Assembly: GCA_009780065.1 (NCBI GenBank)
Contig: WRAS01000001.1
Coordinates: forward strand, 34,521 to 98,520
Direction: 5' to 3'
Source: Bacillota bacterium
Lineage (GTDB): Bacteria > Bacillota > Clostridia > Christensenellales > UBA1242
Length of the DNA stretch: 64,000 nt
This document shows positions 4,229-64,000 of this stretch, piece after piece (the first letter of the stretch is position 1; each line of letters opens with the position of its first letter). The translations under genes were made by a program, and so were the position numbers. Under the pieces are notes generated by a model. The model had not been told where the DNA came from. It ran no database searches and worked only from the letters and a program-made list of their open reading frames with translations.

Positions 4229-4273
4229 TCCCTTGACAAAGTTAATTTAAGTATGATATTATGCAATAATGCA

Positions 4274-4314
4274 AAGCCTGTACACAGTTCAAGCTGTGTG
4301 CGGGCTTCTTTTTT
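4274..4314 (+). terminator. Rho-independent terminator after tilS
   Basis: 14-nt stem AAGCCTGTACACAG / CTGTGTGCGGGCTT (two G-U or mismatch positions), 6-nt loop, then a CTTTTTTT run. Confidence 0.75.
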
Positions 4315-4331
4315 GGGGGAATAGGAAACTT

Positions 4332-10972: not shown

Positions 10973-10978
10973 TTTAAA

Positions 10979-10999
10979 AAGAGGCAATTGCCTCTTTTT
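10979..10999 (+). terminator. Rho-independent terminator
   Basis: Perfect palindrome AGAGGCAATTGCCTCT followed by TTTTT, 7 nt after the stop codon. Confidence 0.75.
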
Positions 11000-11051
11000 G
11001 CATGTATATGTTTATACATATTTTCACAACCTAGTGCCAAGGAGGTGTTAT

Positions 11052-11522
11052 ATGCATGACGAATTTGAAAGAATAACAATGAAACACATAAGAAATCGTA
11101 AAGGCGAAATAATCAAGCCATATCCATACGTAGACAGGGGGGAGGGAGCGATTTTAAAGATGTCAGAGCCTGAATTGCCGCCTAAGCGGTCTGTTAGCCC
11201 AAAAGGGCTGGCCGCGTTTGGGATTTGTGCGTTTATTTTTACGTTGGTATTTGCATCTATCATATATGTTGCGGTTCCAGGGGGGCAATCCGCCGCCACA
11301 CCAATGGCACATGAGAAGGTGATATATAACTATTCTCAACCAATAAAGTTCAAGGGCGAATATGCACAAAGACAATATGACCAAAAATTATTTCATACAG
11401 GCATTGGTTATATTCATACCGAAATGATTATGCAGGCAATACAAAAACGACTTCACGATAGAATGTACGAAAGGGTATATACACCCCAACCACAAACACA
11501 ATACAAGATAATATGGGGGTAA
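11052..11522 (+). CDS. Hypothetical bitopic membrane protein (156 aa)
   Basis: AAGGAGG Shine-Dalgarno 5 nt before ATG 11052. TM LAAFGICAFIFTLVFASIIYVAV. The track ORF from 10728 would cross the upstream terminator. Confidence 0.65.
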   Translation: MHDEFERITMKHIRNRKGEIIKPYPYVDRGEGAILKMSEPELPPKRSVSPKGLAAFGICAFIFTLVFASIIYVAVPGGQSAATPMAHEKVIYNYSQPIKFKGEYAQRQYDQKLFHTGIGYIHTEMIMQAIQKRLHDRMYERVYTPQPQTQYKIIWG

Positions 11523-15142: not shown

Positions 15143-15697
15143 ATGGACGAGAAAAAGAAAAAATTTGTGGCGGCTGGGCTTGCAATGGGTGTGCTTGGTT
15201 TGGCGGCGTGTAATGAGGCCACCGTCGCACCGACGCAACAATCAAACCCAAACCCGGGCGTGCAATACATTCACCCCGCCCAAACCCCAGATACCAGTGC
15301 CGAGGTAATTAGATTGCCAGGAGGGGGATCCCCAGACTATACAAACGAAACAAGACCAGGTACTGAGCAGGTAGTTGATCAAGAACCATTTGATGTTAGT
15401 ACTCTGATTGGAACTGGCTCAATTCAGGCACCATGTTTGCGTGAATGGGGTATGGAAGAGGTTCGTCGTGGGTCATTAGTAATTTGTACTAAAAGGGAAT
15501 GTTTGAATCCAGAGTGGGATGTTAATCACCGTGTCGGAGGTTTGGAAAACTTCTTAGATAGACAAGAAGAGGCTGGTGATCCAATTTCATGTCCGCAACA
15601 TATGGAAGCTGTAGTTAGGACACTACTTGATAGGCATTATCGTGAAAGTTTTTGTAAACCACTAGAAGAAGAGTCAGAACAATCACTTGGCGGGTAA
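15143..15697 (+). CDS. Lipoprotein (184 aa), Cys-containing C-terminal domain
   Basis: Signal peptide plus lipobox MDEKKKKFVAAGLAMGVLGLAAC. Classic AAAGGAGG Shine-Dalgarno. Five further Cys residues in the mature part. Confidence 0.8.
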   Translation: MDEKKKKFVAAGLAMGVLGLAACNEATVAPTQQSNPNPGVQYIHPAQTPDTSAEVIRLPGGGSPDYTNETRPGTEQVVDQEPFDVSTLIGTGSIQAPCLREWGMEEVRRGSLVICTKRECLNPEWDVNHRVGGLENFLDRQEEAGDPISCPQHMEAVVRTLLDRHYRESFCKPLEEESEQSLGG

Positions 15698-18800: not shown

Positions 18801-20404
18801 ATGCAGTGCATGGTGAAGGCGCCTTTAATAAGATGGCTATGTTTAAGCACGAAAACAGGAGTGAGGGAGATGAAAATGGTGAAAAAGCATGGAATAATAA
18901 AGTAGGCTTTGATAAGAGATTTGGTGAAGGTGCATATCAAGAAAGAAAAGAATATGATGCAAACCATGGCAAAGGTTCTTGGCAGATGAAGCGGGAGCAT
19001 GATGCAAAACATGGCGAAGGTAGTTACGATAAGAAACAAGAAGAAGAGGCAGAAGGCAAGAAAAAACCTGGTCGTGGCAGCGCATTCCAAGTGGCCCTTG
19101 CAAATACCAAAACATGGGAGAAGATGCGTAAACCTTTGTACTTCTTTGGGACAGAGGGTGTAAGCGAAGCCCAAGATAAAATGGAACAAGTATATTTTGC
19201 ACGTCGCAAGTCCGAGGCCGGTATGGCGGATGAATTGTACAAGAACAAGTTGGACTGGGAAGGCGCAATGAGAGCCAAAGTTGAAATGGATAAAATTAGG
19301 GTTGAACTTAAAAGTGATAAACTGGATAAAGCAATGCGTCTTCATTTGGAAGATAGATTAGGTAAAATGCAAGATGACTTTGATAGAGGTATGAAATCTT
19401 GGAAAAGTCTTGGCAAAACCGACAAGCAGTTTGCTGCGATGAGTACCGCATATCTTGCAACACGGGAAGATGGTATAACTGATAATGAAAGAGAAAAACG
19501 TGAGAAGGTATACGAAACATTAACCCACAGTACAGTCAGCAAAAAAGATATCTATTTTCAAGACCGTGCAAAAAAATACCAGGAACGTGTGGATGGTGTC
19601 ATGACAGATGCAACCATGCGTGAGATTGGCAAAAAGTTGCAGGCCAAGGTGGCTAGCGACCCAAAAATGGGTATGTTGATGGAAGATAAAGGATTCATTC
19701 AAGCACTTAAAGAGAATGGTATGGATGTTAAAACAGCAATGACAGAGTTGCGTGAATTCCTTAGAACGGGTGAAGACAAGAAGAACTATGGTTTCAAGGG
19801 CGGGAATGTGGACAAGTTGCGTGGCAACTCGGTAGACGTTCAAAAAGGTATCGAGTTTACACACTTCTTTACTGATCTTCTGGGGGATGCAAAGGGTGCA
19901 AAGTCTGACGGTTCTTTTGCCGCGACCGCCAACCATGCGGCTGCACTTGCTAATATGCTTATAAGTGACGAGGTTTCTAAAAAGGCAGATGCCGGAAGAA
20001 ATGCACTTGGACAACAAGAAATGGCTAGTGTTAACCAAATTGACCAAGTTGCGAAAGGGGTGGATCAAGTTGCTAACTTGGTTTCAGATAGTCGAGTGCA
20101 AGCTGAGATTGCTAGATTGAAAGACATACCGAATCTTGAGATTGCGAGGGGGAATGATGCAGCATTCTATGACATCCTTATGAAAGAACTTAAGCGCGTT
20201 CAAGATGCCTCAAGCGACGCCACTGAAAAAGACAGTATTGCGCGCGCAATACGTGAATTGTCCAGTCACCGTACGAACGTGCAAAACATTGCTCGACTTA
20301 CTGTGGAGCAAGACTACTTGGGTGAAATTGTTTCTCAGTTCAAAATGTGGGACGACTATTTCAAGAGTATTATGGGTACTGCGAAATATCCTGGAAAGGG
20401 TTAA
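15842..20404 (+). CDS. Giant polytopic membrane protein (1520 aa): two multi-TM blocks around a large extracytoplasmic domain, plus a K/E-rich coiled-coil tail of about 700 aa; candidate TrbL/VirB6-like channel component
   Basis: Uninterrupted 4.5-kb frame. TM block 1 covers about aa 5-210 and block 2 about aa 640-770 (IFIIFGVMLNFTFALIQRVVELAVMYMMSPITVAMYPF, VIAVFAPVIAINLFFVMFPVF). The VirB4-like gene follows 38 nt later. GTG start is uncertain. The VirB6 assignment is inference from topology and context only. Confidence 0.85.
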   Translation: MVDLKFVPLLVGGVVAAGLFGSRALQALMNWTLFQELFFNITQWVAGIFFGFWRMVAGVVDIMEMLFLMFAGLEAIYSVPGDVYYAGMEGGQGGIGDETMVYSETLVTMIIRSAVVQNVFGSMLAVATVLMIFFTIIVLIRNQYKEKDGGNPYQVIFRMFKGMVMFLFITTGVIVGLMLSGIVFHALNMATRQGVQTQMSGLIFQSMSFGANRMRAPIPATHPDMNLQLRKMIDGTNEEQRDSGGWWREGEIVRHGTNFWVRPMIEGMDMSVPGHEEGNFIVIIPRHLEDGAENVGVIEIRMFYTTISVYQQGPSLPGGGFGPGTWMGMPSIATYVVDERPQTYNPPTCPSFFFGLRSTPEKEQIGSVVDRQRIHRNFGALYSERSVIPELGNFETRELAETAADATRHSIANVRKLFWGYSTHSDLTTVSNPNEGQFCGSSGSWDGRRDQRLGYLPSSHGYIQGWGSGTFMRIVSDDSPYLSLIHQITLNSESSPIDTTMVKNYTPANPVQGSERFSTRGVRFNIIVPCLFNLAGADDIEILISDDPHPIRGTLFGPAFRLGNYAYEQAILSTTELAGIPDNQRARRYAQIAAWIDYQMAKTVPDYWLIISEETAEESPGSIYAVTVIGAMTYNNTDAVVVLYYVFDMDWLIGWLGIFIIFGVMLNFTFALIQRVVELAVMYMMSPITVAMYPFDDGNAFSNLFVKPFYKKVIAVFAPVIAINLFFVMFPVFRGIQFFPEGNLFTGTIPNLVARTLVILALFSMLPAIRTQVQNMLGADAMQQKKLGEVWKESTAAVFGSKLGAKVAAAPKGAVVGGAHLARNYVGARKSQNTGQEEKLSLSERMSMGAAGFGLGAKSKAEREKVLKDKKDKNALKEDYELAFGKGSFDKDTKGMDSKAIGEKLKGKEKEIADAREKKASQKFGELADKNQKLYGKDYRDDLVAQFEKLKGAHGSAGAYEIIAKKQVPELYMREKGMTDKDRKEYDAVHGEGAFNKMAMFKHENRSEGDENGEKAWNNKVGFDKRFGEGAYQERKEYDANHGKGSWQMKREHDAKHGEGSYDKKQEEEAEGKKKPGRGSAFQVALANTKTWEKMRKPLYFFGTEGVSEAQDKMEQVYFARRKSEAGMADELYKNKLDWEGAMRAKVEMDKIRVELKSDKLDKAMRLHLEDRLGKMQDDFDRGMKSWKSLGKTDKQFAAMSTAYLATREDGITDNEREKREKVYETLTHSTVSKKDIYFQDRAKKYQERVDGVMTDATMREIGKKLQAKVASDPKMGMLMEDKGFIQALKENGMDVKTAMTELREFLRTGEDKKNYGFKGGNVDKLRGNSVDVQKGIEFTHFFTDLLGDAKGAKSDGSFAATANHAAALANMLISDEVSKKADAGRNALGQQEMASVNQIDQVAKGVDQVANLVSDSRVQAEIARLKDIPNLEIARGNDAAFYDILMKELKRVQDASSDATEKDSIARAIRELSSHRTNVQNIARLTVEQDYLGEIVSQFKMWDDYFKSIMGTAKYPGKG

Positions 20405-20442: not shown

Positions 20443-23070
20443 ATGTCGCAATATCTTATTCCGCGTAAAACAAAGGTAAAAACCGAATTCATGAATGGTA
20501 TAACCGGCGGTGACCTATTCTATTTGGGCATTGCCGGAACCATCGTGGGTATGACTTTTGCCGCCAACTTTGCTTACAGCATCGTGGTGGGTATTGTTAT
20601 GTTGTTGCTTGCACTTATCGGATTTATCAAAGTGGAAGAGGGTGTTCGTGGATACGCGGCGTCTTGGCGTGTGTTTAAGTTCTTTGCATATGCCAAAAAG
20701 TACGCCAAAGTGCATGGGGGCGGTTATCGCGATATAAAGGACCTTGTACCATACGTAGGCATAGAGGAGAGTAAATACGTTAACTATGGTGATTATTATG
20801 CAAGGGTTATTGAAATAAAACCCATAGAATATGGTCTTTTGGATATCGATAAGCGTAATATGGTAGTTCAGAATTTTGCAAATGCTATTCGGAGAATAGG
20901 ATACACACAAAGTGCAAGTATCATAAGTTTAGAACGTGGTATGATTCTGGACAAATATGTGGATTACGAGATAGAAAAATACGAGGCAACAGTTAATGCC
21001 ATGGAAACAGGGGGTATGTCGGATACCGAACTTTCTGCACGTGAAATTATTTTTAACGAGCGCGGAATGTTGCTTGAATACATGAATAGCGAGGAAAAAA
21101 TATTCAAAGGCTGTTACTATTTAGTTATTTATGACCGAACTAAGGATTCTTTAGAGGCAACTGCGCGTGGGATAAGAGCAACTTTATCAAGTTCTGTTGT
21201 TCCAGTCGATAACTATTTCGTCGAAGGAAAGGAACTTATTATCTTTTTACGAGCAAATTATAATAAAGACTTTGATGAACGACAAACAAACAGCATGCCA
21301 GAAGAAAAATTGATGAATTGGGTTATCCCAAACAAAGTCAATTTTACAACACGTCTTGCAAAAATCAATGGATTGCCGCGTGGTGGTTTTACCATAACGG
21401 ATTATCCAAATGATGTTGGCAATGCCTGGGCATATACAATTTTTAATATGCCGGGTACTAGGGCTGTTATGAATATCCTTCCAATTCCTAAGGAATTATC
21501 CATACGCGTTATTGACAAGGCGATTTTGGAGATGAAAACACAAATGGCAAGCAGTCACAAGTCCAGTCACCAAATGGAACGTGACAAGCAGTTGAACACA
21601 ATTACTGACCTGCTTTCACAGATTAAAATGAACAACGAGTTATTGTTGGACGTAAATATTCATCTTACGCCAGATCAAGAATCAAAACGTGAGGTAAAAG
21701 CAAAACTAAGAGAAGAGGGGTTCAAGTTCTCTGAATTGCTGGGGCGCCAGGTGGATTCATTTATATCCAGCAACGTTTCACGTCTGGAAACTCTGACTGA
21801 ATACAGCCGTGGTATGCCAACCACTACAGTTGCAGCCACATTTCCGTTCATTTCTGATATGTTGCAAGACGAAAAAGGTATTTGTATAGGGTCAAACACA
21901 TACCCTGTTTTCATTGATTTCTTTAAACGAAACAACATTCGTGTTAACAGTAACATGATAATAATAGGAAAGTCTGGTTCTGGAAAGTCGTTTGCGACAA
22001 AATCTGTTTTGGCACACTTGGCGGCGGATAACACAAAGATTTTCATTTGTGACCCAGAACGTGAATATGTTGGAATGGCGCAAAAATTGCACGGTGGTTT
22101 TATAGATGTCGGTAATGCGGGTAAGGGACGCTTCAATCCGTTCCATATTTATCCGGCTATGTTAGATGACGATGACGGTGTAGAATTTGACGACACATTT
22201 GAAAACCATCTAAGGTTCTTGGAAAGTTACTTCAAAATTGTTATGGAGGGTATCACCAGTGATGCGCTGGAAGTTCTTAACGGTCTTGTTGCGCAATTAT
22301 ATAAATTAAAGGGAATTGACAAGCACACTAAATTTGATTTATTGGAACCGCATCATTTTCCAATTTTCCAAGAACTATTTGAACTTTCTAAGCAATACCT
22401 TGCAGCAGCTACAGATGATTTCTCGCGCGTTAACTATAGAAAAATTGTTACATATTTGGAAAAGTTCGCAGAAGGTGGACGATTCTCGGGTCTTTGGAAT
22501 GGTCCAGCGACAGTTCGAAGTCAAGAGAACTTTTTCGTATTTGACTTTTTGACATTGCTTGCAAACAAAAATACAATTGTGGCGAATGCCCAGATGCTTC
22601 TTGTGTTCAAGTACTTGGATGGTGAAATTATTAAGAATCGTCAATATAACCAAAAACATGGTGTTAAAAGAAAGATAATAATAGCAGTGGACGAGGCGCA
22701 CGTGTTCATAGATGAAAAACGTCCGATTGCGCTTGATTTCATGTTCAACATGGCAAAACGTATTCGTAAGTACGACGGGATGCAAATAATTATTACCCAG
22801 AACATCAAGGACTTTGTTGGAAGTCCGGTTATCGCAAAAAAATCTGCGGCTATTATAAACGCGAGTCAGTATTCTATGATTTTCTCTCTGGCTCCTAATG
22901 ATATGTCTGACCTTGTGACACTTTATAAAAACTCGGGTGAAATTAACAAGACTGAACAAGAACAAATCGTGGGTAACGCACGTGGACAAGCATTCTTTAT
23001 CTCAGGACCTGCAAACAGAACACTTGTAACAATTGAAACCAGTGAGGCGATGAGGGCATTGTTCGAGTAA
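20443..23070 (+). CDS. virB4: VirB4/TraE/PrgJ-type T4SS ATPase with a fused N-terminal 2-TM (VirB3/TcpE-like) module
   Basis: N-terminal helices LFYLGIAGTIVGMTF and IVVGIVMLLLALIGFI. Walker A IIIGKSGSGKSFATKS (21967-21990), Walker B IIIAVDEAHVF (about 22678-22707). The 875-aa size is typical of Gram-positive VirB4 homologues. Confidence 0.85.
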   Translation: MSQYLIPRKTKVKTEFMNGITGGDLFYLGIAGTIVGMTFAANFAYSIVVGIVMLLLALIGFIKVEEGVRGYAASWRVFKFFAYAKKYAKVHGGGYRDIKDLVPYVGIEESKYVNYGDYYARVIEIKPIEYGLLDIDKRNMVVQNFANAIRRIGYTQSASIISLERGMILDKYVDYEIEKYEATVNAMETGGMSDTELSAREIIFNERGMLLEYMNSEEKIFKGCYYLVIYDRTKDSLEATARGIRATLSSSVVPVDNYFVEGKELIIFLRANYNKDFDERQTNSMPEEKLMNWVIPNKVNFTTRLAKINGLPRGGFTITDYPNDVGNAWAYTIFNMPGTRAVMNILPIPKELSIRVIDKAILEMKTQMASSHKSSHQMERDKQLNTITDLLSQIKMNNELLLDVNIHLTPDQESKREVKAKLREEGFKFSELLGRQVDSFISSNVSRLETLTEYSRGMPTTTVAATFPFISDMLQDEKGICIGSNTYPVFIDFFKRNNIRVNSNMIIIGKSGSGKSFATKSVLAHLAADNTKIFICDPEREYVGMAQKLHGGFIDVGNAGKGRFNPFHIYPAMLDDDDGVEFDDTFENHLRFLESYFKIVMEGITSDALEVLNGLVAQLYKLKGIDKHTKFDLLEPHHFPIFQELFELSKQYLAAATDDFSRVNYRKIVTYLEKFAEGGRFSGLWNGPATVRSQENFFVFDFLTLLANKNTIVANAQMLLVFKYLDGEIIKNRQYNQKHGVKRKIIIAVDEAHVFIDEKRPIALDFMFNMAKRIRKYDGMQIIITQNIKDFVGSPVIAKKSAAIINASQYSMIFSLAPNDMSDLVTLYKNSGEINKTEQEQIVGNARGQAFFISGPANRTLVTIETSEAMRALFE

Positions 23071-52149: not shown

Positions 52150-53928
52150 ATGAACGAACATATGCCGACAGCGGACCAAGGAAGTATTTGGTATCAGTCC
52201 AAAGCAAAACCAACCGATGCACGTCAAACACGGGCGGTTAAATTGTCTACTATGGCGATTTGTGCGCTTGCTATGATTTGCGTTCCTGTGTTGTTAATTA
52301 TTGCGGGGATGCAAGATGCGGGGGCCGCACCGTTCGCACCTGCGACAATTCGATTAAATGCAAATGGCGGGGGGATTTCTGGTTGGCAAGGACAATTCGG
52401 TCCCAGTGTAGATCACACCTTTCAAGCGGATCCATCTGGTATCTGGACAATTACATTACCAAATGCCTCAGATATGAACCCACCAGGCGGAATAGCAATT
52501 AGTCAATTCCAAGGTTGGGTAGTCGCATCCAGTCCGACAGAGGTTATCTTGCCAGGCGGTCTTTTTTCTACAGGAGGCGGAGGTGCCGGTTGGGGTATAA
52601 ACATGATGGCCGGACCAGTAGAGTTGATTGCACTTTGGCATACACCAGTCAATGTAATATTTCACATGCACGAGGGTGCACCTATAAACACAACCAGATA
52701 CGGTAACCCATCTACAATTACTTATCGAATTCCTAATATAGTTGGGACGGGTCATGTTGTTAGTGCGACACCTGCAATGCAACTTACTTTTGGGGGCAGA
52801 AACTTTCTTGGATGGTACACCCAAGCAGTATTAGGAGAGAATGTCAGTTTCCCGCAAACAATAACCACAACTGAAAATTTCCATGCAAGATACGGTGATG
52901 CCGCGTTTGTTACATTTATGGCGGCAGGCGGAACTATGACTGGTTCAGGTCAAGATATTGTACACGGTGGAGGTGGTTCAATTACCCGACCGCTTGCTGT
53001 TGGGTTTCCAATTGGTAGCGAACCAGTAATAACAAGAACAGGATACCGCCTTGTTAGATGGCAATCATCACTAGACACCCAAGCAACAATTGTATTTGGA
53101 ACAGGTAACGAAGCCTTTGTTGTAAAACAAGATGTTACAATGACCGCGATATGGGAAAGGGCAGTGTTTACCATTAATTTTGATGCACAAGGTGGCATAG
53201 CCGGCGGAACGCAAACAGTTTTACATGGGAACGCAATAGTAAGACCGCAAGACCCAACACACACAAACCAGGATCTTTACTTTAGACACTGGGCAACCAC
53301 AGTTGGCGGAAACACATCTTTTGACTTTAGCACAGTTATTACAGGTGAAAATTCTGCCGGAACTGGAAATACTTTGTTTGCGGTTTGGGGTGCAAAATTA
53401 ACATTGACATTAAGTATCGAAAACCCGCTTTCTGGAGATTTAACAATACTTACATTCCGACGTCCAACAGGGTACCAATTAACCACATTGAACTCATATT
53501 TGCCTGTACACCCTGCATTACAATTTATGGGATGGGCAACCAGTGTAGGCGGTCTTGTGGTACACAACGCAGGTGCAGTTATAACTTTAACAGGTAACAC
53601 AGATTTATTTGCAAGGTTCAGAATTAATCCAGACTACATGCCTGGTGGATTGAACATCGTTACATTGAATTTTGCGGGTGGATTGAACCCTGGAAATAAC
53701 CTTGTGACTTCATGGGTAATACATTCATGGGATCCAAGCACGTTAAACCTTCCAAGTCAAATGCAAATGGACGAGTTCGCGATGCTAAACTCGGACTTCC
53801 ATGGATTGGAATTCCAAGGTTGGTTTGCAAACTCGAACTTTACAGGAAGTGCTTTTACCACAATTCCATCTGCAATGGTAGGGGGGGGCGAGATTCAATT
53901 CTTTGCAAAGTGGACGTTGGTTCCATAA
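52150..53928 (+). CDS. Surface protein with Listeria-Bacteroides (InlB B-repeat/Flg_new-type) repeats
   Basis: N-terminal anchor/signal STMAICALAMICVPVLLIIAG. At least 6 units with the F-x-GW...(F/L)(Y/F)A-x-W pattern (FLGWYTQ...FHARY, YFRHWAT...LFAVWG, FMGWATS...LFARF, FQGWFAN...FFAKW). GGAGGA Shine-Dalgarno. Confidence 0.75.
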   Translation: MNEHMPTADQGSIWYQSKAKPTDARQTRAVKLSTMAICALAMICVPVLLIIAGMQDAGAAPFAPATIRLNANGGGISGWQGQFGPSVDHTFQADPSGIWTITLPNASDMNPPGGIAISQFQGWVVASSPTEVILPGGLFSTGGGGAGWGINMMAGPVELIALWHTPVNVIFHMHEGAPINTTRYGNPSTITYRIPNIVGTGHVVSATPAMQLTFGGRNFLGWYTQAVLGENVSFPQTITTTENFHARYGDAAFVTFMAAGGTMTGSGQDIVHGGGGSITRPLAVGFPIGSEPVITRTGYRLVRWQSSLDTQATIVFGTGNEAFVVKQDVTMTAIWERAVFTINFDAQGGIAGGTQTVLHGNAIVRPQDPTHTNQDLYFRHWATTVGGNTSFDFSTVITGENSAGTGNTLFAVWGAKLTLTLSIENPLSGDLTILTFRRPTGYQLTTLNSYLPVHPALQFMGWATSVGGLVVHNAGAVITLTGNTDLFARFRINPDYMPGGLNIVTLNFAGGLNPGNNLVTSWVIHSWDPSTLNLPSQMQMDEFAMLNSDFHGLEFQGWFANSNFTGSAFTTIPSAMVGGGEIQFFAKWTLVP

Positions 53929-56200: not shown

Positions 56201-56860
56201 CTATGACATTACCCATATTTGATTGCTCCATTCGCTTGCTTGATGATTTTCGCCAACACCTTTTATTGCTCTTACTGTGAAATACTGTGATTGTATATTT
56301 TGTGACCATGTTGTTAAAATCTCTGCCATAGTGATTTCCGTTTTGGGTGCATCGAAAAAGAAAGAATGAGTAACTGGGTTGCGATCATTATGTCGTTGAA
56401 CACTTCTCCTGATTTCATAAAAATCAGCACTTGGAACACTTAGCCAATGGAGTCTGTGTTCATCAATTTCAATGAATGGTGCGAACAGACTGTCTGGAAT
56501 AGGTGGTGTTATTCTTACGTAAGTTGAACTCCATTCTCGATAAACATTGGCTCCATGTGGAAATGCACTTCTAATCCGTCTCACCCTTAAAAACCAATCT
56601 CCCTCTATAAACTTAAAGTCATTGACATCAATACTGCGTTGACTCCAAATATCTATTGTGTCAGTAGTTACAAGCACATCATCTCTATAAACACGCCTTT
56701 CAATATTGAATCCAGCACCAGGTCTAGCCGTGCTATCCCAATAAAGTGTGTCGCCATCAAGTCTGACATTAGTAACTTGATTACTTCTGCATCCAGTCAT
56801 AATGAATGCCGTTGGCACAATCAAAACAATTACAAGCAAGGTCAATACAACTTTTTTCAT
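56201..56860 (-). CDS. Lipoprotein with two FN3-like repeats
   Basis: MKKVVLTLLVIVLIVPTAFIMTGC signal plus lipobox at ATG 56860. Repeats LDGDTLYWDSTARPGAGFNIERR and IDEHRLHWLSVPSADFYEIRR. Confidence 0.7.
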   Translation of the reverse strand: MKKVVLTLLVIVLIVPTAFIMTGCRSNQVTNVRLDGDTLYWDSTARPGAGFNIERRVYRDDVLVTTDTIDIWSQRSIDVNDFKFIEGDWFLRVRRIRSAFPHGANVYREWSSTYVRITPPIPDSLFAPFIEIDEHRLHWLSVPSADFYEIRRSVQRHNDRNPVTHSFFFDAPKTEITMAEILTTWSQNIQSQYFTVRAIKGVGENHQASEWSNQIWVMS

Positions 56861-56905
56861 ATCAATATTATACTCGATAATAGAATTATATGGTAGTATA
56901 AATTT

Positions 56906-57226
56906 ATGACTAAGTTTGAAAGATACAATGAAACCCATCATGGAGAAGTAAATAGTATATTCAGGAAAGACAGAAGAGATTTGTTTGGATCGGGGCTGTT
57001 TTTTCTTATTGTTGCAGTTGCCTTGTTTGGGGCATCAATATTCATGTTTTCACTGAATGATTTTAACTTTACCGCGTGGGAGAATCTGTACACAGGTGCA
57101 GGATACCTTTTGATTTTTGCATTCTTTTTTCCTGGCATTCCTGCATTTATTCTTTTCCCGAAAGGTGTGGCGTTTGGAAGGGCACTTAATATGTTTGGTT
57201 GCTTGGAAACAGTAAAGCATATATAA
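56906..57226 (+). CDS. Hypothetical 2-TM membrane protein (106 aa)
   Basis: TGgTAGTAT extended -10 lies 6 nt before the ATG. Helices LFFLIVAVALFGASIFMF and GYLLIFAFFFPGIPAFILF. Confidence 0.55.
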   Translation: MTKFERYNETHHGEVNSIFRKDRRDLFGSGLFFLIVAVALFGASIFMFSLNDFNFTAWENLYTGAGYLLIFAFFFPGIPAFILFPKGVAFGRALNMFGCLETVKHI

Positions 57227-57227
57227 T
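57199..57227 (+). promoter_or_regulatory. Promoter TTGCTT-17-TATAAT 5 nt before ATG 57233
   Basis: TTGCTT 57199-57204, TATAAT 57222-57227. Confidence 0.6.
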
Positions 57228-57232
57228 GCAAT

Positions 57233-58267
57233 ATGCGTAAACATAGAGACGTACCAAGAATACTAATGTTTTGTGCAGGTGCTTTTATAACCCTTATTGG
57301 TTTGGGTATATTTGTAACTGGACTTGTATTTAACATCCTGCACAACAACAGAATGAATGGCGATTGGATACAAATCGAGGCACAAGTCGTTGGTTATAGA
57401 TTGGGAATGACAAGCCGTAGTGCCGTTGCAGGTGGTCGTGCAACAGGTGGAAGTTCTGCACCACTTATGATTTTTCAATTTGAACACAATGGCACAACTT
57501 TTCGCGCGATACAAACAACTCGTTCTACACAAAACCGAAATGATATAAGTGTAACCCAAATTCAAAATTGGGTCGTTAATGTTCGTTCCTTTACAATTTG
57601 GGTAAATCCCCAAGTTCTTGCAAACGAGGCAAGTCTAGACCCATTTATATATATCCCAAGAGACCCAAGCAATGTCCGCATATGGCATACCCTTTTCGCA
57701 ACTGGCTATGATTATCATAATCCAACAACAAGGGTTGCGTATACTGACAGTACTTTAACCGAGCGAATTTTAGCCCTACACCAAAACGATTCAATTATTC
57801 CAGCAGATGGTCGACTGTGGATTACTTTAATAATTCTCGGTGGTATTGTCATGCTTCCTGGTTTGTGTCTTTTGCTACCTGCAATATTCAGGCGAAGCGA
57901 TGCCAGACGAAGAATATCAAAACCAAGAAAACCAAGGTCTAACACTACGATTCATTCAAGATCTGCATTTCCACATCCACGAATGTCATCGGACGAATTA
58001 AGCCAATGGGAAAAAGAACGCCGGCAAAGACCCTATCAAAGTGGTTCATTTTCTGTGCACTTGATATCAGTTCCACCAGCATTTGCAACAAGCAAGATAG
58101 ATTTAATCAAGATAGTCAGGGAATATAACCCAGGCATGAGTCTAGGCAATGCAAAAAGCATAGTAGACAATCCGCCGCAACTGGTAACAAGTGGTATGGC
58201 ACAACAAGATGCCGAAATATTGGCGCAGCGATTACGTGATTTCAAAGCAGAGGCAGAGGTTAGATAA
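57233..58267 (+). CDS. Membrane protein with a DUF3592-like N-terminal module, a second TM and a cytoplasmic C-terminal domain resembling the ribosomal L7/L12 C-terminal domain
   Basis: TMs ILMFCAGAFITLIGLGIFVTGLVF and LWITLIILGGIVMLPGLCLLLPAIF. C-terminus FSVHLISVPPAFATSKIDLIKIVREYNPGMSLGNAKSIVDNPPQLVTSGMAQQDAEILAQRLRDFKAEAEV aligns by eye with E. coli L7/L12 [66 protein letters not shown]. Confidence 0.8.
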   Translation: MRKHRDVPRILMFCAGAFITLIGLGIFVTGLVFNILHNNRMNGDWIQIEAQVVGYRLGMTSRSAVAGGRATGGSSAPLMIFQFEHNGTTFRAIQTTRSTQNRNDISVTQIQNWVVNVRSFTIWVNPQVLANEASLDPFIYIPRDPSNVRIWHTLFATGYDYHNPTTRVAYTDSTLTERILALHQNDSIIPADGRLWITLIILGGIVMLPGLCLLLPAIFRRSDARRRISKPRKPRSNTTIHSRSAFPHPRMSSDELSQWEKERRQRPYQSGSFSVHLISVPPAFATSKIDLIKIVREYNPGMSLGNAKSIVDNPPQLVTSGMAQQDAEILAQRLRDFKAEAEVR

Positions 58268-58725
58268 TGGAAACCATAATATTATTTAAGGAAGATAACA
58301 AAGACATGATGAAGAGACTGTTGATGCTTGCGGTGTTGTTTTCTTTGGTAACGGTTGGATTATTGATATTAATTGTGGTTTTGGATTCAAATATTTTCTT
58401 GTTTATTGGATTTATATTATCTTTCATGATTGCAATCAGGTTTTTCATATATCGATTTAATTCAAAACATTTACACAGCATGTTCATGATTACCGAACAT
58501 GCTTTTATATTTTACTCGCCAATTTCCCAGTCCAGAAAATTCAATGTGCACGAATTCAAAGGGTACGAGATTATTAATCAAAAATATAAACTGGTTTATT
58601 TTAAATTATATTTTAATGAAAACGAGTTTTATATATCTACCAGAAAATCTGGCGAACTGGCGAGAATACTGGACGTTATTATTGAACATAACGAAGATAA
58701 TTATGAAACAGAGGCGATGCACTAA
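58267..58725 (+). CDS. Hypothetical 2-TM membrane protein (152 aa), possible bacterial PH-like C-terminal domain
   Basis: TAATG stop/start overlap with the upstream gene. Helices LLMLAVLFSLVTVGLLILIVVL and IFLFIGFILSFMIAIRFFI. Confidence 0.6.
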   Translation: METIILFKEDNKDMMKRLLMLAVLFSLVTVGLLILIVVLDSNIFLFIGFILSFMIAIRFFIYRFNSKHLHSMFMITEHAFIFYSPISQSRKFNVHEFKGYEIINQKYKLVYFKLYFNENEFYISTRKSGELARILDVIIEHNEDNYETEAMH

Positions 58726-58730
58726 TTTGT

Positions 58731-58759
58731 TTGCTTGTTTACAATTTTTTCGCTAGAAT
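58731..58759 (+). promoter_or_regulatory. Promoter TTGCTT-17-TAGAAT ahead of the virD4-like gene
   Basis: TTGCTT 58731-58736, TAGAAT 58754-58759. The leader carries a GGGGGAG Shine-Dalgarno. Confidence 0.55.
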
Positions 58760-58796
58760 TAATATAGAATACAAATGTAGACTGGGGGAGTAGAGG

Positions 58797-60788
58797 GTGA
58801 TCCAAAATATAAAGGAAAAATGGCCGATATATCTCTTTTTAGGGATAATTGTTTTGATTGTGCTGATGTTCATTGCCATTGTTGGTATAAATATTTCCGA
58901 GGGGAACGAGAACCTTATGGACCCAGCGGCAATGTCCAACCCGGCGTTTTTGGTTGTTTTATTAATTGCGCCGATTGCAGCCATAGCATTATTGCTTAGC
59001 GGGTTTTTATTTGGCGATGAAAAAAATAAAACGGTGGAACAATTTTATTCCAACCGATGGATGACCAAAGCTGAACTTAATAAACAATATTTATCAACCT
59101 CATTGTCGGGGCTCAAAAATCAAAAAAAGACAGGTGCATTGGTGCGTTTTGAATCCAGTGGAAGCGATGTTGCAATTAACATGGTACCAAAGGACTATCA
59201 TACGATTGTTTTGGGAACAACCGGTTCTGGTAAAACACAGGGTTATGTTTTGCCGTATGTGTATACATTGGGGCACAGCGGTGAAAAACCAAACATGGTC
59301 ATTACCGACCCAAAGGGTGAAATTTACGCGATGATGGCGGAAACACTTAGACGTAATGGTTACGACGTCCAGGTATTTAACCTAAGTGAACCAACCAAGT
59401 CCAGTCGCTGGAATCCATTTGAACGTGCTTGGGATTTGTTTCAACGTGCGCATAATTTGGACAAAGAATTGAAAAAACACACGGCTACAGACCCCGCCAA
59501 ACTTGGTCTAAGAATTATTGCCAGTGACTATCCAAACACATGGTACGAATTTAACAAGGTCGCATTTCCAACATTTGAAATGGCGGACATGGAAAGAAAA
59601 ACATTAAAACAAAGATTACTGTCCGAGGCCGAAGCCGACGTCAAAGATATTTGTGCGGTTATATGTCCAATTGAAAGTGAAAAGGATCCAAGTTGGGAAC
59701 AGGGTGCCCGTGACATGATTCAAGGTACCGCACTTGCGATGTTGGAGGATAGCCTTAACGTAAACCTTGGTATGACCAAAGAGCGTTTTAACTTTTACAA
59801 CGTATTTAAAATCCTTACATTACGTGACAATGACCCAAATAACAGTTTCGCGTCCATAAGAAACTATTTCGAAGGTCGTGATAGACTAAGTCCTGCCAGT
59901 ATGCTTGCCCAAACCGTTGTTGCCAACAGTGAAAACACAATGAGAAACTTTTTTGGTGTGGTGACAAATAAATTAAGTATGTTCGCGGACAAGGGTATTT
60001 GTTATATTACAAGTGGAACAGAAATCAGTTTCAATAACTTTATCGAAAAGCCAACTGCGTTCTTCTTGGTTATTCCGGATCAAATCAAGATTCGTCACCC
60101 ACTTGCGATACTGTGTGTGGCGCAATTGTATAAGGCATTGGTTGATCTTGCGAATACACTTGGTGGGGCGTTGAAATGGCCGACGTACTTTATTCTTGAT
60201 GAATTTGGTAACATGCCAAAATTGAACGACTTTGAAACCATTATCACGGTTGCTCGTTCTCGTCGTGCGTTCTTTACATTGGTGCTTCAGGATTATAAAC
60301 AATTGGAAACGGTTTACGGTCAAGACAAAGCCGTGACCATTCGAAATAACTGTAACACTCAAATTTTCATCGGGGTTAACGACATGGACACACGAAAGAT
60401 GTTCAGTGACCTGATGGGGGAGATGGCAATTGAAACCGCAAGCAAGTCTGTTTCCAAGAACACAGGTAAAGTAACAGAGCAGGACAGTGAAAGTGGTTCC
60501 AAATCCACAAATTACAGTACGGTTTCACGTCCATTGTTGCCGCCGAACGAATTGTTGGATTTAAAACCGGGCAACATTTACGTCTATACATTTGGATTCA
60601 ACCCATTAAAAAGTAAAGTTACAATGTTCTATCAGGTTATTAAAAACGGTCTGGTTAAATTGTACAAAGCCCCAGACGAATGGGTGGCAAGCAAATACTT
60701 TGACGAGGAAAATATATACTACGACATCAGACGTCGTAACGATGTTGTGTTAAAGAATGCAAAGCGTAACGATGTATTCGATTGGTAA
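58797..60788 (+). CDS. virD4: VirD4/TraG-type type IV coupling protein (T4CP)
   Basis: Two N-terminal TMs. Walker A VLGTTGSGKTQG (59215-59238), Walker B YFILDEFGNMPKL (about 60186-60212). 663 aa. GTG start. Confidence 0.85.
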   Translation: MIQNIKEKWPIYLFLGIIVLIVLMFIAIVGINISEGNENLMDPAAMSNPAFLVVLLIAPIAAIALLLSGFLFGDEKNKTVEQFYSNRWMTKAELNKQYLSTSLSGLKNQKKTGALVRFESSGSDVAINMVPKDYHTIVLGTTGSGKTQGYVLPYVYTLGHSGEKPNMVITDPKGEIYAMMAETLRRNGYDVQVFNLSEPTKSSRWNPFERAWDLFQRAHNLDKELKKHTATDPAKLGLRIIASDYPNTWYEFNKVAFPTFEMADMERKTLKQRLLSEAEADVKDICAVICPIESEKDPSWEQGARDMIQGTALAMLEDSLNVNLGMTKERFNFYNVFKILTLRDNDPNNSFASIRNYFEGRDRLSPASMLAQTVVANSENTMRNFFGVVTNKLSMFADKGICYITSGTEISFNNFIEKPTAFFLVIPDQIKIRHPLAILCVAQLYKALVDLANTLGGALKWPTYFILDEFGNMPKLNDFETIITVARSRRAFFTLVLQDYKQLETVYGQDKAVTIRNNCNTQIFIGVNDMDTRKMFSDLMGEMAIETASKSVSKNTGKVTEQDSESGSKSTNYSTVSRPLLPPNELLDLKPGNIYVYTFGFNPLKSKVTMFYQVIKNGLVKLYKAPDEWVASKYFDEENIYYDIRRRNDVVLKNAKRNDVFDW

Positions 60789-60792
60789 ATCT

Positions 60793-61303
60793 ATGAAAGT
60801 TAAACACACAGTACACAACCCGAATTGGGAATCAATGTTCCAAGCGGAAAAGCAACGAATTCAAAGTGCCATCGGCACAGAAAATTTTGATATTCATCAT
60901 GTCGGCAGTACCGCGTTGCCTGATATTGTTGCGCAAGACTCGATTCATACTTTAATCGAAATTGCCGAGGGTATAAATCTTGATGAATTTAAACAGGCAA
61001 TGGTTAACCTTGGCTACGAATTTTCTGACAGGACACACAAACAGTTGGACAACAAATTTCTGCCACCATTTATGACATTTAAAAAATTGCCATTTAATAT
61101 TTCGACTGCTTTTCAATCTACGGAGATACACAATTTGATATTATTTCGTGACTATATGCTTAAACATCCAGGTTGCTCGCGAAGAATATCAAAGGATTAA
61201 AGAGGATTCCGCTAAAAGCAGTGCAAGTTTAGACGAATATAAAAACGCAAAAAGTGCTTTCATTCAAAAAACCCTGCAACTTGCAAGGGCTAAAGAGTTG
61301 TAA
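60793..61303 (+). pseudogene. GrpB-family protein with one frameshift near codon 126
   Basis: IHHVGSTALPDIVAQDSIHTLIEI and FRDYMLKHP lie in frame 1, which stops at 61200. The +1 frame from 61172 reads VAREEYQRIKEDSAKSSASLDEYKNAKSAFIQKTLQLARAKEL up to TAA 61301-61303, the expected GrpB C-terminus. Confidence 0.65.
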
Positions 61304-61319
61304 TGCTACGTAAATCTAT

Positions 61320-61348
61320 TTGCCTCATTCTAATCACCGTGATATATT
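61320..61348 (+). promoter_or_regulatory. Promoter TTGCCT-17-TATATT ahead of the unlisted long ORF
   Basis: TTGCCT 61320-61325, TATATT 61343-61348. Confidence 0.5.
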
Positions 61349-61393
61349 TAAATTGTATATAGGGCAAACTAGGGTTGGGGGAATATTGCACAA

Positions 61394-64000
61394 ATGAGGG
61401 GTTTACGTCTTTTAACTATATTAATCCTCGTAACCGCTATGCTTGGCGGTGTTGTGCTTTCGCTTGTCATTAATAGGGATGATTATACTGGTAATGTCCA
61501 AGCGGTGGACACCGACAGATTTACATTCAATAGACCCGCCGGAACAGGACAGGGGAATTTGGGCGGGGCGAATCAGATATTTTCAGTTCAAAGCAGATAC
61601 TTTATCGGGATGGGTGATGTCTCCACAGGTAGTGGCGGCACGCATCCATACAGACCAGTATTCGGAACATTGCAGCCGGGTGACCCGCGATTAATAAATA
61701 ACACAACGCCGGAACTTTTCATGAATGAAATACTTTGGCAAACACCATTTATCCCAGACAGTCGCCAGCCATTGGCACCTGCCAACGTCTATAATTACGG
61801 ATTAGTGGTGCTGAATGATTTGGCTACCGCGGATAATTTAGTAATGATTGAACTTGCCGATTTAAATGGTCATTCACCAAACGCGGCTGAAATGTGGTTT
61901 ACTTTTACCGATTTATATGGAAACACGTCGATTAATAATATTGAAACCGCGGGTTTTACCAACATGCCAGGATCATCAATGGCAGTGCTAAGACAAAACG
62001 CGGTTAACTCACTTAATCGTGGCAGTTTTGTACACAGTACCAATGCTGGACTTTCATCCTTTGTTGGTGCTTTCTACGAGGAGGGGTATTATAACTTCCA
62101 CATGCGGATTAATACCGCACTAGGATGGAGGAACCTTAGATTCGCGTTCTACGTAATTAATGCATCCAATTACGTACGTACACCATCCATCAGTTACGTC
62201 GCACCAAATGATATAAATGGCCGCCCAATGCCAACATATAATACACCTGTAAGGCAAAGGGGTGATAGTAACCAGTTCTTTTTTAACTTTAACGGTCGTA
62301 CACCATTTACACAATTTGACCCAAGACGTTTTGATGTGGCCGTTACCGCAACAAACTTTCAGCAAATTCCGGTACTCGCACCCGCACGTGAGGGTGTAGT
62401 GGTTGGATTGGAAAATTTGGATAGATTTACGTTTGAGATGCTGGGAAATTATACCGTGCAAAGTGGCATGGTTTTTGAAATGTTCTGTCCACAGGCGGGG
62501 AATGGTTTTGGTGGTTTTATACGACTGCCTGTTATGCATTTTTCAGGATACAGATATACTCTTCATATATTTGGATATCAGGCATATTTCGAAGAATTCG
62601 ATAACCAGGGGCGTAGTTCACCCGAATGGTTCGGAGGGCGCGAGGACGCGGACAATAATCTTGTAAACGCCGACATATCCAAAGATTTAGTACAGCATCT
62701 GCAAAATATTTCACCAATACACGCACATCTTGTTGAGGCAGGTACGCGTACGGGTGCGGACACATTTCAAACATTCATGCACACAATTGCGCATAACTTT
62801 ACCCCTGCTGAAACCAATCAACCACCTGTGCATTTGGCAGGCAACGCAATACTAGCGCGCGAGTTTTTAGGGATCGTCCAGGGCGTACGGCAATATGGTG
62901 CGGAATTATCCACCGTATCTTTTAGACCGAACTCAAATGCGCCATGGAATGTCATTGACTTTAACCCAAACAGGCCATTCTTTGCGCCAGGTGAATATAT
63001 TGTAACGCTTTACTATAATTTTTCGATTGCGGATTTATTGCGTGTCGAACCATATCGCCAGGTCTTTTATTTCCGAATTGTGGATTTAATGGATGTACGA
63101 ATAGCAAAAGAGGCCTCGGCAGGTGTATACGAAATCTACCACATAAACGAATTTATCGACCGACGTGTTCCGGTTAACAACGCATTCTTTGTATTTATGG
63201 ATGGAATGAACGCAAGTGCGGAATTATCGCCGTTCTCGCGATTACCGCGAATTTCGCTGCGGATTACGTGTTTTGCTGGAAGTCTGATTGCAAATTACAA
63301 TAATATTGATTTAACTGATATCGCATTACAAGCCAATTTGTTTAATGGAACGATTGAAGGGAACTTTGAATTCAGAATATTCTCGGGTAATTTAGAGGCG
63401 GCACAATCCGTGTTTTCGGTCATTGTGGATAATAGTTTAGTAGATACATTCGCCACGGTTGGTTTTGGTGGACATGGTGAAAATAGATTCTATACACCAG
63501 ACCAACAATTTATCGCACCAGACGCCCCATCTAATGTTGCAATTTGGGGTGCGGGTAATATTCAAAACTTTGGTGTAGAACTTAGTTGGGATGCAAAACC
63601 AAGCGGGGTTGCTTTCCGTCATGCCGCGGTCGAGTTCTATGCATTCGAAAATCAAAGCACCAGTGCAACCTTTATCAGTGCGATAGGGAATACTCTCCCA
63701 GATGCCCAAAACATTGTTTCACCGTACGTAATGTCCACGACACCAACCCGAATGAATTTTAATATTAACTCAACCGCGGATGGTCGTTTTGTGCTGAACG
63801 CAACGTTTCGGGCAACCGGTCTTTATATCATTCGTATCTACGACAGGGCGGGCAACGAAAGTGTATTTGTTTTAATCATTGATAATACTTTGCAAGGCTT
63901 TTCCCAAGACCCAACATTCGACTTTGCCCAGTCTATTAACATGGTAACCGACAGAAGTGGTGTGCAAGTTGGTTTTGGTGAAAACAAAGTAATCCCAGCA
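61394..64000 (+). CDS. Large secreted or surface protein, 3'-truncated by the window edge (at least 869 codons); absent from the supplied ORF track
   Basis: My translation from ATG 61394 (MRGLRLLTILILVTAMLGGVVLSLVINRDD...) meets no stop through nt 64000. Signal-anchor N-terminus, GGGGGAA Shine-Dalgarno and its own promoter. Asn/Phe/Thr-rich beta-type composition, no recognised domain. Confidence 0.8.
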   Translation, partial: MRGLRLLTILILVTAMLGGVVLSLVINRDDYTGNVQAVDTDRFTFNRPAGTGQGNLGGANQIFSVQSRYFIGMGDVSTGSGGTHPYRPVFGTLQPGDPRLINNTTPELFMNEILWQTPFIPDSRQPLAPANVYNYGLVVLNDLATADNLVMIELADLNGHSPNAAEMWFTFTDLYGNTSINNIETAGFTNMPGSSMAVLRQNAVNSLNRGSFVHSTNAGLSSFVGAFYEEGYYNFHMRINTALGWRNLRFAFYVINASNYVRTPSISYVAPNDINGRPMPTYNTPVRQRGDSNQFFFNFNGRTPFTQFDPRRFDVAVTATNFQQIPVLAPAREGVVVGLENLDRFTFEMLGNYTVQSGMVFEMFCPQAGNGFGGFIRLPVMHFSGYRYTLHIFGYQAYFEEFDNQGRSSPEWFGGREDADNNLVNADISKDLVQHLQNISPIHAHLVEAGTRTGADTFQTFMHTIAHNFTPAETNQPPVHLAGNAILAREFLGIVQGVRQYGAELSTVSFRPNSNAPWNVIDFNPNRPFFAPGEYIVTLYYNFSIADLLRVEPYRQVFYFRIVDLMDVRIAKEASAGVYEIYHINEFIDRRVPVNNAFFVFMDGMNASAELSPFSRLPRISLRITCFAGSLIANYNNIDLTDIALQANLFNGTIEGNFEFRIFSGNLEAAQSVFSVIVDNSLVDTFATVGFGGHGENRFYTPDQQFIAPDAPSNVAIWGAGNIQNFGVELSWDAKPSGVAFRHAAVEFYAFENQSTSATFISAIGNTLPDAQNIVSPYVMSTTPTRMNFNINSTADGRFVLNATFRATGLYIIRIYDRAGNESVFVLIIDNTLQGFSQDPTFDFAQSINMVTDRSGVQVGFGENKVIPA

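Follow-up and report, generated by a model that had tools for sequence, protein, structure and literature searches.

We analyzed a 64,000-nt stretch of contig WRAS01000001.1 (GenBank assembly GCA_009780065.1), originating from the termite gut and referred to below as the window, with respect to two groups of genes resembling components of type IV secretion systems (T4SSs). One group encodes a VirB6-like membrane protein and a VirB4-type ATPase, the other a VirD4/TraG type IV coupling protein (T4CP) and a giant surface protein. We consider it probable (about 0.6) that these are the two halves of one vertically inherited, chromosomally fixed and minimal monoderm-type T4SS of Christensenellales, with the giant protein as its surface partner. 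The four genes are, with positions counted from the first nucleotide of the window:

15842 to 20404, plus strand, VirB6-like polytopic membrane protein of 1,520 aa (sub-threshold NCBIfam matches, map of transmembrane segments, position)
20443 to 23070, plus strand, VirB4-type ATPase of 875 aa (Pfam, NCBIfam, Walker A motif)
58797 to 60788, plus strand, VirD4/TraG type IV coupling protein of 663 aa (Pfam, NCBIfam, motifs)
61394 to 64000, plus strand, first 869 codons of the giant surface protein (open reading frame, ending at window-equivalent position 69085)

A sequence-only reading of the window had proposed that a secretion apparatus is split across the chromosome. This was supported by our comparison, as the VirB4, VirB6-like, VirD4 and giant genes were found adjacent to each other in many related species. 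The end of VirB4 and the start of VirD4 are indeed 35,727 nt apart, and the V-ATPase operon, ileS, lon and scpAB were confirmed to lie between the two loci.

Sequences Compared and Scope of the Searches

The continuation of the giant open reading frame (ORF) and 7 kb beyond the window were read from the 253-kb ENA contig ERZ27257297:k141_2648740. The search for relaxases and integrases therefore covered the 64 kb window and ∼7 kb downstream (to window-equivalent 71.2 kb), ∼71 kb in total, and the Pfam scan took in all window ORFs of at least 120 aa. The comparison set consisted of 80 species-representative loci around VirD4 relatives together with several metagenomic contigs. L-numbers are locus labels, with L003 denoting the window's own contig (L003 18341-19246 corresponds to window-equivalent 69133-70038). 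All loci were queried with the window proteins and with a custom hidden Markov model (HMM) built on small, pilin-like proteins with two transmembrane (TM) segments.

No relaxase, integrase, transposase, recombinase or Rep domain was identified by Pfam in window ORFs of at least 120 aa or in the 7 kb downstream. That the T4CP has no relaxase nearby, as already pointed out for the window, was thereby found to hold past nucleotide 64000 up to window-equivalent 71.2 kb. No tRNA gene was present in these ∼71 kb, and neither a compositional break nor a GC anomaly was found. A VirB1-type cell-wall hydrolase or a VirB8-like domain was found neither in the window nor in the compact gene clusters of relatives that were inspected.

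VirD4, VirB4, and VirB6-like Proteins

The VirD4 gene starts with a GTG located 6 nt after the sequence GGGGGAG. Its product matched the Pfam families T4SS-DNA_transf (PF02534; 1.2e-49, 169.9 bits, gathering threshold (GA) 20.1), TraG-D_C (PF12696; 6e-34, 117 bits) and TrwB_AAD_bind (PF10412; 3e-27, 95.9 bits), and passed the NCBIfam model conju_CD1115 (NF045973) with 301.5 bits against a cut-off of 250. Two N-terminal hydrophobic helices were found within residues 13-75, the Walker A motif GTTGSGKT at residue 140 and the Walker B motif YFILDE at residue 464. Among 12 orthologues down to 41% identity, 120 columns were invariant. Judged from profile scores above curated thresholds and intact motifs, the gene encodes a bona fide VirD4/TraG coupling protein, in agreement with the initial description of a T4CP with two TM segments and both Walker motifs. 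The nearest plasmid-borne relatives are ∼30% identical and belong to the Bacillus CD1115 family.

For VirB4, the best curated family by far was NCBIfam VirB4_plasma (Mbov_0397; 576.5 bits, cut-off 590). The protein also matched Pfam P-loop_TraG at 4e-23 (82 bits, GA 25.8), and the Walker A motif GKSGSGKS is located at residue 509. Other NCBIfam equivalogs stayed below their cut-offs (CD1110, 152 vs 325 bits; TIGR00929, 73 vs 643 bits), and the nearest plasmid-borne relatives, from Spiroplasma and Mycoplasma, are 25-32% identical. By these matches the protein is clearly a VirB4 homologue and not a member of any curated subfamily. The N-terminus of VirB4 carries a strongly hydrophobic TM segment at residues 44-62 (window 20443-20650). 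As a separate VirB3-like gene is absent from the locus, this segment is possibly a fused VirB3-like anchor.

The VirB6-like protein has about eight predicted TM segments in its lysine-poor N-terminal ∼760 aa, while the C-terminal ∼730 aa are lysine-rich and predicted to be entirely helical. The window protein matched NCBIfam MMCAP2_0566 at 4e-19 (69 bits, cut-off 90) and Mbov_0396 at 1e-10, below cut-off, while the proteins at the orthologous position in relatives scored 102-140 bits with MMCAP2_0566 and thus exceeded the cut-off. Mbov_0396/MMCAP2_0566 is the VirB6-like protein of mycoplasma integrative and conjugative elements (ICEs) (PMC12857230). In L092 and L093 the gene likewise lies immediately before VirB4. 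Sequence and profile searches against the PDB with the VirB6-like protein gave no match, and an AlphaFold2 (AF2) single-sequence model of its C-terminal half was helical but too weak for a fold search (predicted local distance difference test score (pLDDT) 49).

Giant Surface Protein

The presence of a very large signal-anchored ORF of more than 869 codons downstream of VirD4 was confirmed, and it runs past the end of the window to give a protein of 2,548 aa according to the gene call and of 2,563 aa if counted from position 61394. The predicted topology comprises an N-terminal signal anchor, ∼2,500 external residues and a C-terminal TM segment followed by the basic tail LRNRMKVR. Homology over the full length was found with the proteins encoded after VirD4 in L090 (34% identity) and in L005 (24%), and the giants of L010-L014 and L019-L085 are homologous as well; every giant that follows VirD4 is homologous to the others. 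VirD4 and the giant are linked in at least 20 species. A gap of 15-72 nt separates VirD4 from the start of the giant gene in L005, L010, L013, and L014, an operon-like arrangement.

The giant diverges far faster than VirD4 (34% vs 82% identity in L090, 24% vs 67% in L005), whereas its length is conserved and the C-terminal TM segment with the basic tail is the most conserved part. When the N-terminal 854 aa were searched with HMMER against 1.84 billion proteins, 34 representatives including the query itself matched, 27 of them being 2,350-3,020 aa long. A word-index homology search with the N-terminus returned zero matches, not even the protein itself, and this negative is uninformative. Neither Pfam nor NCBIfam gave a match for the giant.

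Since it carries both a signal anchor and a C-terminal TM anchor, the giant is predicted to be a Sec-exported, surface-anchored protein and not a T4SS substrate. It had previously been suggested to be either a substrate or a surface partner; the partner part agrees with its conserved linkage to VirD4 in relatives, whereas the substrate part does not agree with the two anchors. The conserved length combined with a hyper-variable sequence suggests that the protein may be a contact or recognition fibre. Sortase anchoring at the C-terminus was considered and ruled out, as no LPXTG-like motif is present in the window protein.

The predicted extracellular sequence is depleted of lysine, with 0.5% lysine vs 5.8% arginine in the giant and 0.4% lysine in the L090 orthologue. 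A Flg_new-repeat protein has 1.0% lysine, and the low-lysine set spans window positions 61394-64000, 15842-20404, 52150-53928, and 5864-7144. Cytoplasmic proteins contain 7-11% lysine and most giants from other hosts 4-6.7%. The VirB6-like protein has about 1 lysine per 100 aa in residues 1-700 and 13-18 per 100 aa in residues 800-1400, a profile that may serve as a hint to its topology. Lysine depletion of exposed proteins could represent an adaptation to an alkaline compartment of the termite gut.

Downstream of the giant follow a gene for a 301-aa protein, a metallo-β-lactamase (MBL)-fold gene and a CPBP protease gene. The 301-aa protein (window-equivalent 69133-70038) resembles the Rho ATPase core (NCBIfam Rho, 7e-12); the motifs LLIDE and VDSLSK..YN are kept and the Walker A GKT is missing. 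The gene is conserved after the giant in L090 and L005, and the L090 orthologue has an additional Rho_N-like N-terminus. L005 contains a second giant gene at 1-4538 (called as 3,584 aa, no Pfam match), ∼5 kb upstream of VirD4 and before infA-rpoA-rplQ, with no BLAST similarity to the VirD4-linked giant.

Compact and Split Gene Order in Related Species

About 20 Christensenellales species with VirD4 identities of 38-46% carry a compact divergent cluster, in which VirB4, a VirB6-like gene and one to four pilin-like genes on the minus strand face VirD4 on the plus strand. In 11 of these loci (L018, L019, L023-L027, L032, L035, L041, L085) VirD4 is followed on the plus strand by a giant gene, the product being 2,500-2,900 aa long with N- and C-terminal TM segments. 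The compact layout without a giant was found in L015, L017, L042, L047, L048, L050, L054, and L056. Where the flanks of compact clusters were inspected they consisted of housekeeping genes, i.e., thyX, tmk, and nrdD (L017) and trmD (L066). Several of the pilin-like genes pass Pfam T4SS_pilin PF18895 (29.6-32.9 bits, GA 26.6), and with the NCBIfam Mbov_0395 pilin-like model they reach 39.6 bits against a cut-off of 40. The PF18895 genes of these Clostridia could equally be VirB3-like, as has been described for mycoplasma CDS15 (PMC12857230).

The gene order is different among the closer relatives of the window. Neither VirB4 nor a pilin-like gene was found within 10 kb of VirD4 in L005, L010-L014, L090, and L091 (VirD4 63-82% identical), and neither VirD4 nor a pilin-like gene was found within 6.6-10 kb of VirB4 in L092 and L093 (VirB4 73 and 63% identical, respectively). 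With the custom HMM, no pilin-like gene was detected in the window, nor at the two islands in the other members of its clade (E > 0.8). Because the genes were adjacent ancestrally, as seen in related species, the view that the two loci are halves of one apparatus now located in two places is supported by gene order.

In some compact clusters (L017, L018), VirB4 is followed by genes for large proteins without annotation. A second, related type of cluster was observed in L061-L089 (e.g., L066 7808-19340, L070, and L082) from Lachnospiraceae, Ruminococcaceae, and other metagenome-assembled genomes (MAGs). Here a single strand encodes, in this order, a pilin-like protein, an unknown protein, VirD4, either one or two VirB6-like proteins and a VirB4 extended to 1,200-1,540 aa, and there is no giant. 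The L066 cluster adjoins trmD and ABC-transporter genes, and the 10 kb upstream of it contain no relaxase.

Chromosomal Fixation and Descent

The order FBA-GT2-GAPDH-[VirB6-like]-VirB4-...-V-ATPase operon is kept in L092 and L093, and all three species thus have the island at the same place, between gap and the V-ATPase operon. VirB4 identities (73/63% for L092/L093) are close to those of GAPDH (82/68%), V-ATPase A (78/66%) and V-ATPase B (86/71%). At the other island the order VirD4-giant-(Rho-like 301-aa gene)-MBL is kept in L090, L005, L010, and L014, with VirD4 (82-65%) being more conserved than the neighbouring MBL-fold gene (63-51%). The context upstream of VirD4 differs per genome, being scpAB in the window, rpoA-rplQ in L005, metK in L090 and leuS in L009. 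A link to scpAB and chromosome segregation was therefore ruled out.

VirD4 homologues form a graded series from 83% to 38% identity and VirB4 homologues one from 73% to 45%, both in MAGs labelled Christensenellaceae, Christensenellales or Clostridia. The identical-protein clusters of VirD4 and VirB4 are small, each on very few contigs. None of the four large ORFs (4.6, 2.6, 2.0, and 7.6 kb) is interrupted, and the ATPase motifs are intact. Since synteny is conserved and identities are near those of the neighbours, both islands appear to be vertically inherited and under purifying selection, a pattern expected neither of an ICE nor of decaying genes.

Comparison with Known Systems

Mollicutes ICEs are mobile elements that encode a DDE recombinase (CDS22), carry inverted repeats and insert at variable sites. 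Their genes CDS15-CDS16-CDS17 correspond to Mbov_0395/0396/0397 and CDS5 to VirD4. Mbov_0397 is the best curated family for the window VirB4, and in the relatives these elements also provide the best families for the VirB6-like protein and the small two-TM protein. The gene order is alike, as the window has an Mbov_0396-like gene followed by an Mbov_0397-like gene and the relatives add an Mbov_0395-like gene in the same order. Both sets are equally minimal, with no VirB1- or VirB8-like parts (PMC12857230), and both are without a canonical relaxase, in the present case within the 71 kb covered. The surface protein CDS14 of ICEA is needed for cell contact (PMC6030558), and the machinery of mycoplasma ICEs also drives chromosomal transfer (PMC12857230, PMC6030558). 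The window differs from the Mollicutes ICEs by having no DDE recombinase in the window and the 7 kb downstream, and by genes that are chromosomal, fixed, syntenic and arranged in two islands. Identities are only 25-32%, the host is not a Mollicute and uses genetic code 11, and the partner protein is a TM-anchored protein of ∼2,550 aa rather than a lipoprotein.

The T4SSs of Patescibacteria/Saccharibacteria are chromosomal, of monoderm MPF-FATA type and usually without a relaxase (PMC12102498; PMC12857230). Their T4CP is mostly encoded far from virB4, and co-option for non-conjugative interaction between cells has been proposed (PMC12102498). The window resembles this in being chromosomal with a T4CP 35.7 kb from virB4, housekeeping flanks and no linked relaxase in 71 kb. 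The expectation that coupling proteins normally sit beside the T4SS, on which the sequence-only reading relied, is thus only partly true, as T4CP genes far from virB4 are documented (PMC12102498). In Patescibacteria PF18895-type pilin-like genes accompany virB4, whereas here they were found only in distant Christensenellales and none was detected in the window. Furthermore, the present host is a Firmicute of the class Clostridia and not an ultra-small epibiont, and a conserved giant partner has not been described for Patescibacteria.

The CTn4/CD1110-CD1115 and pCF10 types (MPF-FATA) share the core of VirB4, a VirB6-like protein and T4CP with the window, and the window VirD4 passes the CD1115 model. 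pCF10-type systems rely on large surface adhesins (PrgB), to which the giant would be comparable. In contrast to these systems the window VirB4 scores only 152 bits with the CD1110 model (cut-off 325), the window yielded neither a relaxase nor a gene for a VirB1 hydrolase or a VirB8-like protein, the best plasmid T4CP is ∼30% identical, and the system is chromosomal and by all appearances vertically inherited.

The archaeal Ced and Ted systems, through which cells of a single species exchange DNA, are chromosomal, relaxase-less derivatives of conjugation that combine a VirB2-like pilin with a VirB6-like membrane protein and a VirB4-like ATPase (PMC9905601). Ced has no VirD4-type coupling protein and no giant partner, and the likeness to the window lies in the logic only. 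The rvh T4SS genes of Rickettsiales are, according to a citation in PMC12102498, likewise dispersed in several chromosomal islands among housekeeping genes. That system differs by being of diderm P-type with duplicated VirB components, and it is unrelated in sequence and host.

Proposed Function and Alternative Explanations

Judging from their families, the VirB6-like protein would form the membrane channel, VirB4 would be the ATPase that assembles and energises it, and VirD4 would act as the substrate receptor. The giant would be exported through the Sec pathway and remain anchored by its C-terminal TM segment and basic tail, both of which are conserved. Its ∼2,500 outward-facing residues would form a fibre for contact or recognition that diversifies rapidly and has a job like that of PrgB or of the mycoplasma lipoprotein CDS14 in conjugation. 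The ancestor would have had a single divergent cluster of these genes together with one to four small pilin-like genes. A rearrangement in the window's clade would then have parted VirB6-like/VirB4 from VirD4/giant, leaving no pilin-like gene at either island. We infer that the parts work together and that the giant serves as an adhesin. The system most likely serves contact-dependent exchange with other cells rather than the movement of a mobile element, and the cargo may be DNA handled without a canonical relaxase, or protein.

A number of observations weigh against this proposal. The score of the window VirB4 is just below the curated cut-off, and the assignment of the window VirB6-like protein is based on sub-threshold NCBIfam matches, so its identity is to be taken as putative. 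The giant is not located beside VirD4 in L091 (VirD4 76% identical) or in several compact clusters, and the pairing is frequent but not obligatory. No fold could be assigned to the giant, for which PDB sequence and profile searches gave no match and an AF2 single-sequence model of residues 48-669 was unusable (pLDDT 30). A relaxase, a pilin gene or VirB1/VirB8-like parts may be located elsewhere in the genome, outside the 71 kb covered. Finally, the distant T4CP of Patescibacteria was found to be non-essential while other T4SS genes were essential (PMC12102498); by analogy, a separated T4CP may therefore have another role here as well.

One alternative is that VirD4 and the giant are an autonomous two-gene module which was exapted beyond type IV secretion, e.g., for handling or regulating the giant, and which has not cooperated with VirB6-like/VirB4 since the split. 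We find this rather unlikely. VirD4 is divergently adjacent to pilin-like, VirB6-like and VirB4 genes in ∼20 species, both ATPases are intact within one clade and show parallel identity gradients, and the giant has a Sec-type signal of its own, so that its export needs no T4CP. The module would on the other hand account for the occurrence of the VirD4-giant pair in varied chromosomal contexts without VirB4 (L005, L009, L010-L014, L090), and it has a parallel in Patescibacteria, in which most T4CP genes are far from virB4, one is non-essential and exaptation was proposed (PMC12102498).

It is very unlikely that the two islands belong to an integrated conjugative or mobilisable element capable of ordinary self-transfer, with a relaxase, oriT and recombinase located outside the stretches examined or too unorthodox to be recognized. 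Housekeeping genes abut both islands and synteny extends across species at 63-82% identity. Neither a recombinase, a tRNA nor a compositional break was found in the window and the 7 kb beyond, and identical proteins on very few contigs are unlike a spreading element. The reading as a mobile element would be favoured by the collinearity of VirB6-like/VirB4 (and pilin-like genes in relatives) with Mbov_0395-0397 of Mollicutes ICEs, a VirD4 score above the cut-off of the CD1115 family of conjugative elements, and the large unannotated proteins after VirB4 in the compact clusters L017 and L018. That the islands are non-functional leftovers of an ancient conjugative element decaying in place would agree with the minimal set of components, with no VirB1-, VirB8- or pilin-like gene in the window, and with a GrpB pseudogene inside the VirD4-giant unit. 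With four large uninterrupted ORFs, intact ATPase motifs, a VirD4 more conserved than adjacent housekeeping-type genes and a 7.6-kb giant ORF open at conserved length in dozens of species, we consider such decay extremely unlikely.

Relation to Previously Described Systems

Christensenellales is a keystone gut lineage. In the literature searched there was no description of a relaxase-less chromosomal T4SS in this order, nor of a conserved VirD4-giant pairing or of a split, apparently pilin-less version. A chromosomal, relaxase-less monoderm T4SS as such is already known since the work on Patescibacteria. The contribution of the window itself is mainly the natural split, and it represents a version that is both split and pilin-less. 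According to a 2025 review, Gram-positive T4SSs lack VirB2-type subunits, the exception being those of Patescibacteria, which are treated as an unusual non-conjugative case (PMC12857230). The PF18895 genes in the clusters of related Clostridia bear on this Patescibacteria-only statement (PMC12857230). The clusters suggest that walled, free-living Clostridia hold a chromosomal system comparable to that of Patescibacteria, with a conserved set of pilin-like, VirB6-like, VirB4, VirD4, and giant proteins.

Tentatively, and as a generalization that we hold to be doubtful as a whole, Christensenellales may possess an order-wide, vertically inherited, relaxase-less T4SS that extends to gut Clostridia with clusters of the L061-L089 type. 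It would correspond, in free-living Firmicutes, to the system of Patescibacteria and would be related, in chromosomal form, to the machinery of Mollicutes ICEs. A membrane-anchored fibre of ∼2,500 aa, constant in length and hyper-variable in sequence, would act alongside VirB2-like pilins, and in the window's clade instead of them. Such a system would be non-mobile and serve recognition of partner cells and exchange of DNA or other cargo.

If functional, the system described here would offer a tractable comparison for what relaxase-less monoderm T4SSs transport, and it would bear on how partner-cell specificity is encoded, through the fast-evolving giant, and on the origin of the minimal Mollicutes ICE machinery. 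The practical message for the window is that these genes should be regarded as chromosomal and not as an ICE.

Neighbouring Genes

The genes next to the two islands were the following:

15143 to 15697, plus strand, predicted lipoprotein of 184 aa with lipobox LAAC, upstream of the VirB6-like gene
56201 to 56941 (or 56860), minus strand, predicted lipoprotein of 219-246 aa with signal peptide and near-lipobox IMTGC
56906 to 57226, 57233 to 58267, and 58267 to 58725, plus strand, three lineage-specific membrane-protein genes (106, 344, and 152 aa) with TM segments
60757 to 61303, plus strand, GrpB pseudogene with a +1 frameshift, the Pfam profile being split across two frames

All of these except the 184-aa lipoprotein lie near VirD4 and had been described in outline before. 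The three membrane-protein ORFs ahead of VirD4 were found to have TM segments, and a TAATG overlap at 58265-58269 joins the 344-aa and 152-aa ORFs. The divergent upstream gene was recognized as a lipoprotein gene from its signal peptide and near-lipobox. The GrpB gene downstream of VirD4 is frameshifted, with profile positions 5-122 in the frame 60757-61200 and positions 123-158 in the other frame (61148-61303). Two independent termite-gut metagenomes show this stretch unchanged and free of indels, so that the frameshift is genuine and GrpB is a pseudogene.

Only four of the ∼nine genes listed in the sequence-only reading belong to the conserved system. Neither the lipoproteins nor the small membrane proteins were found beside VirD4 or VirB4 in relatives, even in L090 from the same sample (82% VirD4), apart from a weak match in L091. 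The 184-aa lipoprotein had no Pfam match, was not at this position in L092 and L093 and had no homologue in any compared locus; the sole weak relative of the 246-aa lipoprotein was L091 12035-12988 (E = 5e-6), the gene after VirD4. The idea that both halves begin with a lipoprotein gene consequently holds for the window's genome only. The three small membrane proteins had no homologues beside VirD4 in L005, L010-L014, L090, and L091, and for two of the three, as for both lipoproteins, Pfam and NCBIfam gave no match. GrpB is located between VirD4 and the giant only in the window's lineage, and no remnants of it were found in the VirD4-giant gap of L090. From this distribution the two lipoproteins and three small membrane proteins are probably incidental and not part of the system. 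A lipoprotein may still have a role in it, by analogy with the surface lipoprotein CDS14, which is essential for mycoplasma conjugation (PMC6030558). The 106-, 152-, and 184-aa proteins were also considered as diverged pilins, for which there was no detectable similarity (hmmsearch E ∼1, hhalign probability ∼1%).

Leaderless-type promoters had been suggested for two of the membrane-protein genes. A TATAAT is located 5 nt before the ATG at 57233 and a TATAAA 3 nt before the ATG at 56906, but promoter-like sites in the region were not above chance (24 vs 18.8 ± 4.2 expected), and these promoters are at most putative.

Two TM segments are predicted for the 344-aa protein (57233-58267), and its last part resembles the C-terminal domain of ribosomal L7/L12 (PF00542, 7.6e-10, residues 284-343; TIGR00855, 1.7e-8), an unusual, membrane-tethered arrangement of this domain. 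The exact protein was found only in the window's organism. Upstream of the FBA-GT2-GAPDH block, at 9740-11522, the window contains two overlapping ORFs (410 and 264 aa) without a family match, the 410-aa ORF being very acidic (aspartate plus glutamate ∼19%).

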